Assembly (NCBI GenBank): GCA_964527235.1
Contig: CAZGNC010000002.1
Location: 14,275 to 78,274 of the forward strand
Length of the DNA stretch: 64,000 nucleotides
Origin: an uncultured Candidatus Saccharibacteria bacterium
GTDB lineage: Bacteria; Patescibacteriota; Minisyncoccia; Phycocordibacterales; UBA9973
Reading direction: 5' to 3'
Part shown: positions 10,482 to 54,296 of the stretch, piece by piece
How positions within the stretch are numbered: position 1 is the first letter of the stretch
Layout: each line of letters opens with the position of its first letter
Notes under the pieces: model-generated
Database searches by the model: none
Seen by the model: only the letters and a program-made list of their open reading frames with translations
Told to the model about the DNA's origin: nothing
Made by a program: the position numbers and the translations under genes

Positions 10482-10525
10482 ATAACGGGTAACAAAAAAG
10501 CTCCCAATCGAGCCTTGAAACATAC

Positions 10526-10553
10526 TAGCAAATATAAGAAGAATGTCAAACTC
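10526..10553 (-). promoter_or_regulatory. sigma70-like promoter for rpsS-rplV-rpsC... (TTGACA, 16 nt, TAGTAT), at the distal edge of the GC-rich insertion
   Basis: Minus-strand TTGACAttcttcttatatttgcTAGTAT lies immediately downstream of the GC hairpin terminator at 10571-10601. Confidence 0.4.
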
Positions 10554-10557
10554 TTCC

Positions 10558-10601
10558 TAGAAAGAGAGATGCCCGCCTAGCACACAATGGTGCTGGCGGG
10601 C
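10558..10601 (-). terminator. rho-independent terminator of the GC-rich cassette (12-bp GC stem plus T-rich tail)
   Basis: Minus strand: gcccgccagcaccattgtgtgctaggcgggc followed by atctctctttct. Confidence 0.5.
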
Positions 10602-10812
10602 TGTTCCCGATATTACTTCTAGCGTTCCGCTCGCAGAGAGCGGTAAAACATTTTCCCGAGATGCTCGGGTCAGCCCCTGTGAAGTGGTATTCCCTTGCTA
10701 GGAGAGAATAGCACCCATCCACGACCGTAGGCCCGTCGAGATGGTCTCCATTTTTACTAGAGTGGAGATTCTCTTTACTATCCACGGTCAGAGTTCATCC
10801 CGTGGTGCTACT

Positions 10813-11043
10813 TTACGACACCGGCCGGGAGTGAGCGATCGCGAACATCGCAGAGACCACTTCGGCCTGAAGCTCATCGAACTCCGGCTGCGCTGGTGCA
10901 CAGCCCATCAGGTGATGCGCGAGCCGTCTTTCGACGGCCGCGACAGTGTTCTGGTCGCTGACGGGAAACCCAGACAAGACCTGAACCGCAACCTGCTGCG
11001 AGACGACAGACGAACTCCTCTGCTGCGCTGGAAAACGGTACAT
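10813..11043 (-). CDS. GC-rich small ORF (76 aa) of unknown function, inside the rpsS/rplB intergenic insertion
   Basis: The ATG at 11043-11041 is preceded by AGGAGA 7 nt upstream and a near-consensus promoter. About 60% GC against about 40% in flanking genes. No recognisable family. Confidence 0.4.
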   Translation of the reverse strand: MYRFPAQQRSSSVVSQQVAVQVLSGFPVSDQNTVAAVERRLAHHLMGCAPAQPEFDELQAEVVSAMFAIAHSRPVS

Positions 11044-11091
11044 GCAAGTCTCCTGTGAAGAGCGGAGCCCGAAATTGGACCCTCTAAATTA

Positions 11092-11121
11092 GAGTATATC
11101 ACAAATAAACACAAAAGTCAA
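11092..11121 (-). promoter_or_regulatory. near-consensus sigma70 promoter (TTGACT, 17 nt, TGaTATACT) driving the GC-rich small ORF
   Basis: Minus strand: cgtaTTGACTtttgtgtttatttgtgaTATACTcta, with an extended -10 TG. Confidence 0.5.
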
Positions 11122-11155
11122 TACGAAAAAAGCCCTTATTTTAATGGATAAATTG

Positions 11156-11191
11156 GCAAAAGAAGAGCCCCGCCAGACAACCTGGCGGGGC
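11156..11191 (-). terminator. GC-rich hairpin terminator (gccccgccag...ctggcggggc plus T-run) ending an upstream ~300-nt non-coding, hairpin-rich segment (11192-11480)
   Basis: Minus strand: gccccgccaggttgtctggcggggc tcttcttttgcc. Confidence 0.45.
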
Positions 11192-11479
11192 GATTACCGG
11201 CCCTCAAGGGCCAGCATGCCCGAACACGACCATGCGTGCTCGGGGTCAAATATTTCGAGACACATAGAGTGCCTTGATGAAACAAAGGATTGGGCGGGGA
11301 GCCACTAAAAACCGTCCCTTATAACACCAAGAACACCTATGCGCCCGATTTTTCAAGAACTGAAAGTGGGAGAGCCTGGCCAGAGCCGAGCATGAAGTAG
11401 GGTTCCGGGCCCACACAACATGATCGGGATAGCCAGACTCATCTAAAACCAACAATAGCATATTATAAAAATTTGTCAA

Positions 11480-11510
11480 CAAAAAATCCCCTTGATTGGG
11501 GATTCCTTGT
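11480..11510 (-). terminator. host-type rho-independent terminator immediately after rplB
   Basis: Minus strand: ggaatccccaatcaaggggatt followed by tttttg. Confidence 0.55.
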
Positions 11511-11518
11511 TTTTAGTA

Positions 11519-13980: not shown

Positions 13981-14361
13981 TTAGAGCATCTTCACATCAA
14001 TATCAACTCCAGAAGGAAGAGATAGGTTGGTCAGCGCTTCAACTGTTTTAGCGTTTGGGTTGATAATATCAATCAATCTTTTGTGTACTCTTATCTCAAA
14101 TTGTTCTCGTGTATTTTTGTAGATGAAAGACGCACGATTGACTGTGTATTTCTTTATCTCTGTCGGCAATGGAACTGGACCTACAACTTTCGCATCATAA
14201 CGCATAGCAGTGTCGATAATTTGTTTTACCGAACTATCAAGAATCTTGCTCTCATACGCTCGTACACGTATGCGTAGCACAACCTTACCCTCCTCTCCTG
14301 CGCGAGCTACTTTGGCTGTAGAAGTCTTAGCTTTTTTTGGTTTTATTTCTTTAGTTGCCAT
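13981..14361 (-). CDS. rpsJ: 30S ribosomal protein S10, with an N-terminal Lys-rich extension
   Basis: RIRVRAYESKILD...GPVPLPTEIKKYTVNRASFIYKNTREQFEIRVHKRLIDI. Confidence 0.9.
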   Translation of the reverse strand: MATKEIKPKKAKTSTAKVARAGEEGKVVLRIRVRAYESKILDSSVKQIIDTAMRYDAKVVGPVPLPTEIKKYTVNRASFIYKNTREQFEIRVHKRLIDIINPNAKTVEALTNLSLPSGVDIDVKML

Positions 14362-14443: not shown

Positions 14444-15637
<1,194 letters not shown>

Positions 15638-15735
15638 AATACTTTTTTGTTTACTAGTTAAAACTTAACGTACGAGAACCAGTCGCTAAGGCCTAACTAC
15701 TAAATAAATTAAACTTATAATAATTTTATATTTAT

Positions 15736-15750
15736 CCGCCTCTGGCGGAA
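15736..15750 (-). promoter_or_regulatory. GC hairpin UCCGCCAGAGGCGGA in the tuf 5' leader; a near-identical copy sits in the DEAD-box helicase leader (26161-26175)
   Basis: 15/16 nt identical between the two sites. Not followed by a U-run on either strand, so it is not a terminator. Confidence 0.35.
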
Positions 15751-15818: not shown

Positions 15819-15825
15819 ACCCACA

Positions 15826-15866
15826 TATACGAGAAACCGCCTGTAGAAGCGCGGTCACTTCTCAGG
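15826..15866 (-). terminator. GC-rich hairpin terminator of GC-rich cassette B (accgcctg...caggcggt)
   Basis: A 13-bp interrupted stem followed by a T-rich tract on the minus strand. Confidence 0.4.
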
Positions 15867-15873
15867 CGGTGAA

Positions 15874-16245
15874 CTACACTGTGTCATCCGAGGGGGTTGT
15901 GATCAGCCCGAAGAATCCACGGATCTCCCCACCCAAGTCGACTTCATCATCCCCCTCATTTCTTCTAGGGACGATCAAGAGATTCGGGTCCTGACTATCA
16001 GGAACACTCTCCGTCTGCGATAGAAACACGACACGGATGTGCGGATGGTTCCTCCGAAGCTGGGCCAACTTACCCAGGTTCTGATTCCCCATCACGAGCG
16101 CCCCAACTAGTTGTCTGGTGTTGTCTGCCAGAAAATCGTCCAGACGATCTGCGGCTGGAACAGAAACGTCGACGCCGTTGAGAAGGTCAGAAAGAGAAAC
16201 CTCCCACTCGGAGTCAGACGACACCACCAGTATGCTCTTCTTCAT
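15874..16245 (-). CDS. GC-rich ORF (123 aa); CheY-like receiver-fold protein lacking the phospho-acceptor Asp (pseudo-receiver)
   Basis: Beta1 ILVVSSD, beta4 VVFLSQTES, beta5 LLIVPRR. Own promoter (TTGACA, 17 nt, TAATTT at 16311-16339) and SD GGGAGAG. About 58% GC. Confidence 0.35.
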   Translation of the reverse strand: MKKSILVVSSDSEWEVSLSDLLNGVDVSVPAADRLDDFLADNTRQLVGALVMGNQNLGKLAQLRRNHPHIRVVFLSQTESVPDSQDPNLLIVPRRNEGDDEVDLGGEIRGFFGLITTPSDDTV

Positions 16246-16343
16246 GAGGTTTCTCTCCCGGAAGATGAAGTTGGAAAACCCAAGACGGCGGACGAAAACG
16301 ATCCTTTTTAAAATTACAGAAATATACCCTTCTTGTCAAACAC

Positions 16344-17138
16344 CTACCTATACTTATTAATCTTCTCGCACAAATTTTGCGCTTCAGCTTTAGGATTATC
16401 TGAGAATATTATTCCCCGAGAGGAATTTATTATTAGACCCAACTTTTCTTTATTTAAACCAGACGTAATAACAGCCTCTAAGTCCCCTCCTTGGGTGCCG
16501 ATACCCGGTACAAGTAGCGTCATCTCTCCTGAGACCTCGCGAACCTTCTTAATTTCTTCGGGATACGTCGCACCCACTACTAGCATGCAGTTATTATTTT
16601 TATTCCAATTTTTAGAAACACTCTCAGCAACTATTTCGTAAAGCTTTTTACCACCACTTTCTAAATCCTGAAATTCTCCAGACCCCCCATTTGAAGTCTT
16701 GCATAAGATTATTGAAACTTTATCTTCTCTGTCTAAAAAGGGTTGCAAGGCTTCTTGGCCTAAATATGGATGAAGAGTTATCGCATCAGCCCCCAGAAAA
16801 TCATAAGCGAAAGCTACATAGCCGTTGTTGGTATTGCCGATGTCTGCACGCTTCGCATCTAGAATTGTGAAAATTTCTGGATAGTTTTGGCCCAAATAAT
16901 CCATAGTTATCTTGAGCTCTAATATCCCTTTATCCCCTCGAGCTTCGTAGAATGCAGTGTTGGGTTTATAAGCAGAAGCGTACTCGTGGGTCTCGTCAAT
17001 AATCCATTTATTAAATTCAAATTGCGGAAATTCTAAATTCTTAAATCGCGCAGGAATCTTTTCAAAATCAGGATCTAGCCCAACGCAAAGAAGCGAGTTT
17101 ATTTTTTTAGCCCTAGTGTTATATTTTTGTAATGACAT
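16344..17138 (-). CDS. pyrF: orotidine 5'-phosphate decarboxylase (type 2)
   Basis: LCVGLDP...DAKRADIGNT; OMP decarboxylase motifs. Confidence 0.8.
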   Translation of the reverse strand: MSLQKYNTRAKKINSLLCVGLDPDFEKIPARFKNLEFPQFEFNKWIIDETHEYASAYKPNTAFYEARGDKGILELKITMDYLGQNYPEIFTILDAKRADIGNTNNGYVAFAYDFLGADAITLHPYLGQEALQPFLDREDKVSIILCKTSNGGSGEFQDLESGGKKLYEIVAESVSKNWNKNNNCMLVVGATYPEEIKKVREVSGEMTLLVPGIGTQGGDLEAVITSGLNKEKLGLIINSSRGIIFSDNPKAEAQNLCEKINKYR

Positions 17139-42260: not shown

Positions 42261-42282
42261 TATAGCACAGACTTTTCTTTTA

Positions 42283-42311
42283 TTGACTAAAATCCTTTTT
42301 TGTTTTAATAT
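42283..42311 (+). promoter_or_regulatory. sigma70 promoter (TTGACT, 17 nt, TAATAT) for GC-rich cassette C
   Basis: Followed by SD GGGGAGG 6 nt before the ATG at 42347. Confidence 0.45.
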
Positions 42312-42346
42312 ATTTTCGGAAGCTCAACACTCACCGGGGAGGAAGC

Positions 42347-42547
42347 ATGAACGACATGCAGAGGGTGTTTGTAGTTGTGAAAATCAACACTAAATACCCC
42401 AAGAGGTGGTCAGTACGTGAAGAAATTCGTAGGATCACTGGTGTGAGTATTCCCTGGAAAGAGGGAGACTCTTACCGTTTCGACATCAAGAAGGGTGACG
42501 TCCGGAAGCTCGTCGACGCCGGCCTCAACGTGGAAGTGGTGGAATGA
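42347..42547 (+). CDS. GC-rich small ORF C1 (66 aa), unknown function
   Basis: Strong SD; about 52% GC. Stop overlaps the next start (ATGA). Confidence 0.4.
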   Translation: MNDMQRVFVVVKINTKYPKRWSVREEIRRITGVSIPWKEGDSYRFDIKKGDVRKLVDAGLNVEVVE

Positions 42548-42792
42548 CAGAAACAAGAGAGAAAGAGAAGCCTTTGTTGATCTTTGGGGGACACGTGGGC
42601 TTGAGCCAGGCCCAAGTAATCAGGATTCTGGACGAACTAGGTGTCCATCACCGAGCAACACCCTCATCGAACCTGTACCACGTCAGGGTGTCAGAGTCCA
42701 GCGACCTGAGCTGGATTGATCGGTTGCTGGAACGGGGTATCGACATTTCGCCGCCCGGCAAGATTCATCAGGTGCCAACGCCAAAGAGATAA
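42544..42792 (+). CDS. GC-rich small ORF C2 (82 aa), unknown function; translationally coupled to C1
   Basis: 4-nt overlap with C1, followed by a GC hairpin terminator (42821-42856). Confidence 0.4.
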   Translation: MTETREKEKPLLIFGGHVGLSQAQVIRILDELGVHHRATPSSNLYHVRVSESSDLSWIDRLLERGIDISPPGKIHQVPTPKR

Positions 42793-42820
42793 GGCGACTA
42801 GCACCTTCATCAAAAACGAA

Positions 42821-42856
42821 AGCGCCACCGAGATTCGGTTGGCGCTGTTTTTGTTT
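42821..42856 (+). terminator. rho-independent terminator of cassette C (agcgccaccgagattcggttggcgct plus T-run)
   Basis: 8-bp GC stem followed by gtttttgttt. Confidence 0.55.
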
Positions 42857-53269: not shown

Positions 53270-53341
53270 GCCCTCATAGTTCAATGGATAGAATGCGAGC
53301 TTGCGGAGTTTGCGATGTAGGTTCGATTCCTACTGAGGGCA
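53270..53341 (+). tRNA. tRNA-Arg (anticodon tentatively GCG; the anticodon stem needs two G-U pairs)
   Basis: gccctca ta gttc aatggata gaat g cgagc uuGCGga gtttg cgat gtagg ttcgatt cctac tgagggc a. Confidence 0.5.
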
Positions 53342-53415
53342 CAAAATAACAAAATACCCAGTTTCTGGGATTTTTAGAACTATAAAATATAATAAAAATT
53401 CCTCTCTACAGATAC

Positions 53416-53444: not shown

Positions 53445-53513
53445 CACGAAAGATCCTAAGTGGGGCACCCTGCCCTAATGAACCTTGATTTATGCCCTCC
53501 GAGGGGGCAAAAT

Positions 53514-54296
53514 ATGTGGCTGATCAAGATGCTAGCATTCTGCTTCCTTTGGGCCATCATGGCCGCAGAGGAAGGGCTCCGCCTAGTGGCGGACGCCCTG
53601 AAGGAGTCCTTCGGGACGGCGCTTCTGGGGAGGAAAAACGTACCGTTCTTGGTGTTGGCGCTCATCCTGAGCACAACCCAGCTCGAGGCGCAAGCACCCC
53701 GACGGACCGCAGACAACTCTGTAACCCCCCAGTGCAACCTGGGGACCGACTGGTCGGTCAACAAAAACCGCCCCGTTGCTTCCGACGAGAAGCTCTACCG
53801 CCTCGAAGGCGGTCCCGCCATCGTCGCCCAGCGCGAAGCACCCGGATCGACGCACATCGTCTACCGGCGATGCAATGTACCCCCAGGAACCGAAGCGTAC
53901 TGCAGCATCAGAGGCTGCTGGATCAAGGTCTGTGGCAACGACCTTGGTTCTCCTGAAGGATGGAAGTTCCCCATCGAAATACCGATGGGAGCGCCTGGAG
54001 TGAACGGGCGCGACGGGAAGGATGGACGAGATGGCCGTGATGGACAGATCGTCTACGCTCCCCCTGCATCGACCGCCCTAGTGCCAGACTTCGACGGACG
54101 ATACAAGGTCCGCGGGGATAGGGGCTTCTGGTGTTTCCGTGGTGCAGGTCAAGGTGCATTTTGCACCGCGATCGCCACCACAGCGGTCCTTGTGGCCAAG
54201 AACAACCTGCCACGAAAGGATGACGAGCCCAAGGGCGGCAAGCCCATCGTCGTAACCCTCCCCAACACAATCCTGATGGCGCTGTTGGGTCGATAA
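53514..54296 (+). CDS. GC-rich (about 58% GC) secreted protein with a short collagen-like Gly-X-Y run and several Cys; unknown function
   Basis: Hydrophobic N-terminus MWLIKMLAFCFLWAIMAA. GAPGVNGRDGKDGRDGRDGQ gives six triplets. The start is chosen at the SD-preceded ATG rather than the longer ORF-track start. Confidence 0.45.
   Translation: MWLIKMLAFCFLWAIMAAEEGLRLVADALKESFGTALLGRKNVPFLVLALILSTTQLEAQAPRRTADNSVTPQCNLGTDWSVNKNRPVASDEKLYRLEGGPAIVAQREAPGSTHIVYRRCNVPPGTEAYCSIRGCWIKVCGNDLGSPEGWKFPIEIPMGAPGVNGRDGKDGRDGRDGQIVYAPPASTALVPDFDGRYKVRGDRGFWCFRGAGQGAFCTAIATTAVLVAKNNLPRKDDEPKGGKPIVVTLPNTILMALLGR

Follow-up and report, generated by a model that had tools for sequence, protein, structure and literature searches.

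Morons, known from lambdoid phages, are autonomous units with their own promoter and terminator and a deviating base composition that lie between conserved genes. Here we describe a bacterial locus on contig CAZGNC010000002.1 (assembly GCA_964527235.1), at which a GC-rich open reading frame (ORF) of 123 amino acids (aa), P0001, is found on the minus strand between pyrF and tuf. The window is the whole stretch of DNA that was analyzed (64,000 nt; contig positions 14,275 to 78,274), and all coordinates refer to it. Judged by gene content and by the labels on the nearest genomes (Candidatus Nomurabacteria, Paceibacterota), the host is a Nomurabacteria/Paceibacterota-like Patescibacterium. Our preferred explanation, held with moderate confidence, is that the locus is a strain-variable accessory cassette in a replacement-prone pyrF-tuf slot, encoding an aspartate-less pseudo-receiver.

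A domain counts as a pseudo-receiver when it is recognized as a receiver but one or more of the residues DD, D, T/S and K are missing from it, and ALR (aspartate-less receiver) domains lack D (PMC12632262). Pseudo-receivers work without phosphorylation, by mechanisms that are largely unknown (PMC12632262). Under these definitions, and going by its residues, P0001 would be an aspartate-less pseudo-receiver.

An orphan coding gene between pyrF and tuf

Genes at the locus are arranged in the order pyrD-pyrE-pyrF, then tuf, rpsJ, rplC, rplD, rplB and rpsS. P0001 was first noticed in an earlier inspection of the letters and ORFs (the sequence-only reading), and the segments quoted there, ILVVSSD, VVFLSQTES and LLIVPRR, are all present in its 123 aa. 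The description of a GC-rich gene between pyrF and tuf also holds, with a GC content of 0.54 in the ORF versus 41% in the window and 0.39-0.44 in pyrF and tuf. The predicted product is acidic (isoelectric point 4.45), and no signal peptide was seen. A 100% identical P0001 sequence is found on independent assemblies of four sequencing runs from one project, and an assembly chimera is therefore excluded.

The ORF at 15874-16245 is a coding gene, a conclusion that is well supported because its GC content is periodic, its length is rare by chance, and its counterparts in the slot are open and, where this could be measured, under selection. GC at the three codon positions (GC1/GC2/GC3) is.63/.36/.61, or 78, 45 and 77 G+C of 124 (chi-square p = 1e-5). 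GC2 is at the level of native genes, the GC excess falls at position 3, and GC1 tops the native range (.47-.60). In composition-matched simulations, an ORF of at least 123 codons arises by chance on this strand in 2.5%. Three types of slot ORF in the window and its relatives are all open over 110-127 codons, each with a strong Shine-Dalgarno sequence upstream, and the type common to relatives L004 and L165 has a ratio of non-synonymous to synonymous divergence (dN/dS) of 0.21, with non-synonymous changes below the neutral expectation (p = 4e-5).

P0001 is an orphan. A word-indexed search of 5.8 billion protein clusters and a phmmer search over 1.84 billion representatives each returned P0001 only, and a profile built from all slot ORFs added just P0122 (the slot ORF of L164) and P0123 (that of L165 and L004). 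Phage records and IMG/VR viral contigs held no match, JGI metagenomes held no relative above 78% pyrF identity, and Rfam gave nothing relevant, whether its gathering thresholds were applied or E was relaxed to 10. Three matches in plasmid records (E = 0.5) lie antisense to an annotated gene and were discarded as spurious.

The composition of the gene differs from that of its surroundings. GC3 is 0.61 in P0001 versus 0.26-0.51 across native long ORFs, and a Shine-Dalgarno-like 4-mer precedes 3 of 52 native long ORFs, while P0001 has a 7-mer. Separately, we observed that the leaders of tuf and of the ribosomal protein genes are A/T-rich and that the GC-rich cassette ORFs all have strong Shine-Dalgarno sequences. 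The high GC3 together with the strong Shine-Dalgarno sequence suggests an origin outside this genome. A GC-richer relative within the Patescibacteria is perhaps a plausible donor, because GC contents of 50-61% occur among the fetched Paceibacterota and because most transfers into Patescibacteria come from other Patescibacteria, as found in a published survey (PMC12455944).

Organization of the cassette

P0001 appears to lie in a self-contained unit, with a clade-type -35 element after the pyrF stop, a weak -10, a strong Shine-Dalgarno sequence, a GC3-rich ORF of 123 codons and a closing hairpin ahead of the tuf promoter. The elements, in the order in which they would be transcribed, are as follows.

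16346-16344, minus strand: pyrF stop codon TAG, read from the sequence
16334..16339, minus strand: cassette -35 element TTGACA, 4 nt past the pyrF stop, inside the clade's extended form GTTTGACAA
16311..16316, minus strand: candidate -10 element TAATTT, 17 nt after the -35, with 3/6 consensus matches (T1, A2, T6)
16253..16259, minus strand: Shine-Dalgarno sequence GGGAGAG, 7 nt ahead of the ATG
15874..16245, minus strand: ORF P0001, 123 aa, ATG at 16245, TAG at 15876-15874
15836..15870, minus strand: terminator-like hairpin ACCGCCTGAGAAG...CTTCTACAGGCGGT, then UUUCUCGU, kept in L004 and L165
15791..15818, minus strand: tuf promoter from the consensus scan, with TTGACA (15818-15813), 16 nt, TAATAT (15796-15791) and TG before the -10

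The sequence-only reading gave the gene its own promoter, with a -35 starting 5 nt after pyrF. The distance is 4 nt. The extended -35 itself is perfect, but the -10 is weak and, with its 3/6 consensus matches, was not listed by the consensus promoter scan. Sequence GTTTGACAA also follows the pyrF stop in L004 and L165, and the -35 of the cassette promoter, in contrast to the foreign-looking composition and Shine-Dalgarno sequence, has the clade's own extended form, TTTGACAA. The Shine-Dalgarno sequence named there, GGGAGAG, is present, at 16259-16253; its equivalents ahead of the counterpart slot ORFs are GGGAGG and AGGAGG. What had been described as a 13-bp GC hairpin followed by the tuf promoter is in the order given, but with 15 pairs instead of 13. 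The hairpin (15870-15836) has one bulge, a folding energy of -24.6 kcal/mol (z = -4.6) and a weak U-tract (UUUCUCGU). This terminator insulates the cassette gene from the tuf promoter, which is kept in ~30 relatives and marks the downstream limit of the cassette.

Copies of GTTTGACAA flank the cassette in the window, L004 and L165, and we considered whether they represent a target-site duplication. This was rejected, since GTTTGACAA equals the clade's extended -35 consensus and the sequences downstream of the two copies are dissimilar.

The slot is replaced as a block between close relatives

The order pyrF-tuf is kept in 66 fetched loci. Of these, 23 have a spacer of ~170-270 nt, with the tuf -35 almost directly after pyrF; the spacers of the remainder measure 350-2390 nt and have unrelated content. 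The closest set consists of the window and relatives L004, L165 and L164, whose pyrF genes are 87-88% identical to that of the window. All four carry a GC-rich slot ORF (0.52-0.54), and these fall into three mutually unalignable types. Two segments delimit the difference between the window and its neighbors.

15870..16332, minus strand: segment without DNA similarity to L004/L165, with flanks that align at 83-90%
15820..16364, minus strand: segment without DNA similarity to L164, which takes in the hairpin as well as the final 21 nt of pyrF and runs to the tuf -35

With respect to L004, the break points are just past the common GTTTGACAA (16332) and just before the common hairpin (15870). The clearest case is that of L164 versus L165. 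Identity between them is 93.0% across pyrE-pyrF (1257 nt) and 99.5% across the tuf promoter and leader (217 nt), and the 481 and 531 nt enclosed by these flanks are without any similarity. Orthologous slot genes that have diverged rapidly were considered as an explanation and rejected: divergence at four-fold sites of pyrF, and hence neutral divergence, is just 0.23 between L164 and L165, and their cassettes share nothing. Near-identical flanks around a dissimilar interior therefore indicate block replacement and not fast divergence, and we conclude that the slot segment is replaced wholesale between relatives. Comparison of L004 with L165 gave a lower synonymous divergence in the cassette gene (0.27) than in pyrF (0.53), and L165 combines a pyrF closest to that of L164 with a cassette of the L004 type. 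Both observations fit an exchange of cassettes between lineages.

In more distant relatives the slot is empty or has other occupants. True receivers are found there on the same strand in L007/L086, L037, L095 and L140 (PF00072, E 5e-12 to 2e-21), L020 has a shortened receiver, and still other relatives have a Sigma70_r4 protein or other ORFs. The slot thus holds regulatory genes of more than one kind. Its receivers in distant relatives have mostly native GC3 values (.26-.33), with.53 in L095. The idea of a foreign gene wedged between pyrF and tuf accordingly needs qualification: there is a separate GC-rich unit, but the junction is not a virgin one, being a variable slot with several interchangeable occupants, some of them receivers. 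Likewise, a check of synteny did not find P0001 itself at native GC in relatives, but did find, in this slot of more distant ones, true receivers whose GC is native.

As a side observation, L009/L087, L026/L114, L137 and L140 carry a small protein on the opposite strand of the pyrF-tuf slot; that of L140 (112 aa) matches Sigma70_r4 and GerE-type helix-turn-helix models.

Resemblance of P0001 to CheY-type receivers

We compared P0001 by hhalign with a reference of 9 receivers, five from the slot in relatives and four classical ones. Residues 1-77 were matched to beta1-beta4 in order, with a probability of 82% (P = 1e-5), and the C-terminal 45 residues were unmatched. As a decoy test, the same comparison was made with every natural ORF of 90-200 aa in the fetched loci and the window, 1178 in total. 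Six true receivers took ranks 1-6, and P0001 came 7th, with a score of 35.3 over 77 columns, the best of the 1172 other ORFs. The best decoy scored 26.2 over ~33 columns, and the L164 slot ORF ranked 9th. With hmmsearch --max, P0001 obtained 6.0 bits, a score reached by 0 of 2000 shuffled sequences. When sequences from the PDB were searched, all five matches to P0122 (the L164 slot ORF) were receiver domains, aligned in register, and a joint profile of P0122 and P0001 placed receivers, also in register, as the top five of nine matches (E in the range 0.15-1.2 in both searches). Based on these comparisons, we consider it likely that P0001 is of CheY-type receiver ancestry. The CheY-like pattern that the sequence-only reading had proposed gains support from the hhalign probability and the decoy rank, but as a sub-threshold resemblance and without a Pfam call.

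The same reading held that the phospho-acceptor Asp and the beta5 Lys are missing, and in this it was right. Residues 45-58 (QLVGALVMGNQNLG), which cover the acceptor region, include no Asp or Glu in any alignment register; the acceptor-aligned residue is A49 with hhalign and M52 with hmmsearch. The positions of the DD pair after beta1 are taken by S9 and S10, followed by D11 and E13. Lys is found only at K2, K3 and K59, and none lies past the candidate beta5, LLIVPRR. Retained is the Thr/Ser at the end of beta4, where VVFLSQ aligns with S76 at the position. The ~12 residues from beta4 to the LLIVP strand leave no room for alpha4. P0001 cannot be phosphorylated at the canonical position and, with acceptor, DD and Lys lost, any activity of P0001 must therefore be independent of phosphorylation.

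Similar units and hairpins elsewhere in the window

The sequence-only reading also saw a style shared with an insert between rplB and rpsS, and other units of this style do occur in the window. The insert (10524-11518, minus strand) interrupts the S10 operon with ~1 kb of GC-rich DNA (0.51; locally up to 0.64). It has three promoter-like sites, with -35 elements at 11479, 11121 and 10549, two hairpin terminators at ~11191-11167 and ~10599-10573, and a 76-aa ORF (10813-11043; AGGAG-7-ATG; GC3 0.71). At the same junction, relatives have non-homologous inserts of 380-930 nt, mostly GC-rich, of which only the last ~50 nt are common. A second unit, at 42280-42850 on the plus strand, has a TTGACT promoter, GGGGAGG-4-ATG and two ORFs of 66 and 82 aa with an ATGA overlap (GC3 0.63 each), and ends in a hairpin with a T-run just ahead of tRNA-Leu and rplS; neither ORF matched Pfam, PHROGs or PADLOC. 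At 53460-54296 (plus strand), beside tRNA-Arg (53270-53342), lies a 278-aa ORF (GC 0.60, GC3 0.70) with a short collagen-like GRDGKDGRDGRDG stretch, for which we found weak matches to phage collagen-like tail proteins and no IMG/VR relatives.

Downstream of the cassette, the 5′ leader of tuf contains a conserved stem-loop (15651-15703, minus strand; TTAGTAGTTAGGCCTTAGCGACTGGTTCTCGTACGTTAAGTTTTAACTAGTAA) with the nearly invariant loop CTGGTTCTCGTA. Across 25 relatives it has 21 predicted pairs, 11 of which show compensatory changes, and it matches no Rfam family. Past the tuf promoter lies another conserved hairpin (15783-15764), which has a T-run. Small hairpins of the form CCGCC-loop-GGCGG number 8 in the window versus 0.18 expected, one of them at 15731-15750. 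The tuf leader carries one such hairpin as a 20-nt insertion, which L004 lacks, and similar tuf-leader hairpins are found at differing points in L009, L011, L026, L040 and L045, that of L009 lying inside the conserved loop. The CCGCC/GGCGG hairpins behave like miniature mobile palindromes or recurrent terminators.

Discussion

In the explanation that we prefer, the cassette would use its own promoter for transcription, probably supplemented by transcripts that run on from pyrF, because there is no terminator between pyrF and the cassette gene. Translation would follow a Shine-Dalgarno-dependent route that most genes of the organism do not use. The product would be an alpha/beta protein, small, acidic and cytoplasmic, and most likely a CheY-type receiver in a strongly eroded state: beta1-alpha1-beta2-alpha2-beta3-alpha3-beta4 would remain, without the acidic pair, the acceptor Asp, helix alpha4 or the Lys of beta5. 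If it acts at all, it may do so by binding a partner as a phosphorylation-independent module, with no phosphotransfer. The cassette itself would be exchanged as a block between close relatives through recombination in the conserved flanks, and its strain-level turnover suggests an accessory role, maybe conflict-related or niche-tied.

Several results weigh against this explanation. P0001 has no match in Pfam, NCBIfam, PHROGs or PADLOC, even at permissive E-values, and for PF00072 in particular none at E up to 10 in Pfam or NCBIfam, which is true of the other two slot ORF types as well. Measured against natural ORFs, the hmmsearch score is less exceptional than against shuffles, since 17 of ~2086 non-receivers score at least as high (p ~0.01). 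P0001 alone retrieves no receivers from the PDB sequence set, the L004/L165 slot type has no receiver similarity, and P0001 has no significant pairwise similarity to either of the other slot ORFs. AlphaFold2 modeled P0001 with a predicted local distance difference test (pLDDT) value of 39 from a single sequence and 48 from two, and Foldseek against the PDB gave no match below E = 0.09. Structure prediction, which the sequence-only reading had proposed as a check on receiver topology, is thus uninformative; the elements of the low-confidence model (E3-9, H18-22, H35-45, E46-52, H54-66, E71-76, E89-93) come in a receiver-compatible order. No donor was found. Because no variants of the window's own ORF type were found, selection was measured only on the L004/L165 counterpart, and promoter use and expression are predictions.

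The strongest competitor, though in our view an unlikely one, is that P0001 is a genuine orphan protein gene of foreign origin, comparable to a phage moron, that has no receiver ancestry and resembles receivers through a generic alternation of alpha and beta elements. It is favored by the missing Pfam match, by the lack of significant similarity among the three slot ORF types, by the uninformative structure model and by the unrelated genes that occupy the slot elsewhere, such as the one for a Sigma70_r4 protein. Other natural ORFs, several of them ~208 aa long, reach 7-10 bits on the same receiver model, and 200-aa phosphoribosyltransferase ORFs (PF00156 by position) score 23.7-23.9 in the hhalign decoy test. 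However, P0001 alone stands just behind the true receivers, with 77 columns in order versus ~33 in the best decoys; its match runs from residue 1 through beta4 with the right order and spacing; and true receivers of the same size are encoded on the same strand of the same slot.

We consider it distinctly improbable that P0001 is a relic in decay, left by a receiver gene that has lost its function, with a frame that is open only because GC-rich DNA has few stops. The loss of the catalytic residues and of alpha4 and the absence of homologues would be expected of a relic, and chance alone opens a frame of 123 codons or more in 2.5-4.6% of sequences with this composition. Yet drift in a 41% GC genome should lower GC3, which stands at 0.61, and the strong Shine-Dalgarno sequence, ATG, promoter elements and terminator are all intact. 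The purifying selection on the L004/L165 counterpart (dN/dS = 0.21), as well as the open frames of all three slot types (110-127 codons), also speak against decay.

A structured non-coding RNA gene in which the ORF is incidental is very improbable. In AT-rich genomes a GC-rich island is often an RNA gene, the transcript folds somewhat better than shuffled sequences (z = -2.1 in the window and -2.9 in L004), and the rplB-rpsS inserts of relatives lack consistent ORFs. But a three-base GC periodicity (p = 1e-5) is unexpected in RNA genes, and the structured-RNA reading was rejected on that ground; moreover, Rfam gave no match at E up to 10, the folding excess comes largely from the terminator hairpin, and the counterpart gene has a synonymous excess. 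Equally remote is an origin from a duplicated fragment of an EF-Tu gene, covering the linker and the end of the G domain. Such an origin would account for the adjacency to tuf and draws on a 34% identity between residues 3-34 (16144-16239) and residues 177-208 of the adjacent EF-Tu (15014-15109; shuffle z = 5.0, p = 0.0013 with BLOSUM62), on EF-Tu being the best natural match among 2096 ORFs and on its place among the top PDB-sequence matches (E = 0.68). We judge the resemblance to be chance, since third codon positions disagree (6 of 32 identical, under random expectation), just 32-39 residues match, p is 0.03 with BLOSUM45 and the remainder of the ORF does not run on into EF-Tu domain II.

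If the accessory-cassette explanation is extended beyond the pyrF-tuf slot, Nomurabacteria-type genomes may carry an undescribed class of mini-cassette, located in fixed slots next to housekeeping genes of high expression and exchanged as whole units among near-identical strains. This is a speculative proposal that we think quite unlikely. Its members would be made up of a clade-type promoter, a strong Shine-Dalgarno sequence of a kind otherwise missing from such genomes, one or two small GC3-rich ORFs and a hairpin of the CCGCC/GGCGG type, and their slots would be pyrF-tuf, rplB-rpsS inside the S10 operon and the region beside rplS/tRNA-Leu, with the pseudo-receiver as one cargo. On this view, the persistently high GC3 would stem from continual import out of a common GC-rich pool, or from selection on expression, and not from a single old transfer. 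Candidate phyla radiation genomes are tiny and are thought to be streamlined; replaceable, foreign-looking orphans beside tuf and in the S10 operon would mean active gene flux within their most conserved neighborhoods. The recurrence of similar cassettes in conserved operons of this clade is a more surprising lead than the single gene. Should P0001 be an aspartate-less receiver, minimal stand-alone pseudo-receivers without alpha4 would exist below family thresholds, and eroded signaling domains may be under-counted. A gene led by a Shine-Dalgarno sequence in a largely Shine-Dalgarno-free genome also offers a way to study the translation of two classes of mRNA. The findings bear on no long-standing open question yet.

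Comparison with known systems

Two kinds of variable element were set aside. A diversity-generating retroelement does not fit, as the types differ across the whole gene and not over a short C-terminal stretch; no dedicated search was made. The cassette resembles those of integrons in being a short single-gene unit with an imperfect hairpin at its end that undergoes block replacement at a fixed site. Unlike them, the cassette in the window has its own predicted promoter, and there is one unit per slot and no array. The hairpin ACCGCCTGAGAAG..CTTCTACAGGCGGT is followed by TTCTCG and has no GTTRRRY core, and it was rejected as an attC site. No integron integrase turned up, the ORFs of the window not having been screened for tyrosine recombinases.

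Phage morons are closer in layout. Like them, the cassette joins a (here predicted) promoter, a gene and a terminator in one unit of divergent composition, has a conserved gene on either side, and varies in presence among close relatives. It differs in being chromosomal, flanked by pyrD/pyrE/pyrF on one side and by tuf and the S10 operon on the other, and in that no phage or viral relatives were found.

At the level of the protein, described pseudo-receivers are by definition recognized computationally, whereas P0001 is not recognized by Pfam and has sub-threshold similarity only. It also differs from them in that it seems to lack alpha4, stands alone at 123 aa with no output domain and has no homologues. 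What it shares with pseudo-receivers is profile similarity over beta1-beta4, the absence of an acidic acceptor and the absence of a Lys after beta5; the Ser/Thr after beta4 is the receiver feature that it keeps. The CheY-like regulators of the slot itself (L007/L086, L037 and L095, and L140 with a C-terminal extension) differ in that they keep DD, D and K and pass Pfam. They are 23-24% identical to P0001 in a joint alignment, and they occupy the same slot, on the same strand and at a similar size (136-158 aa).

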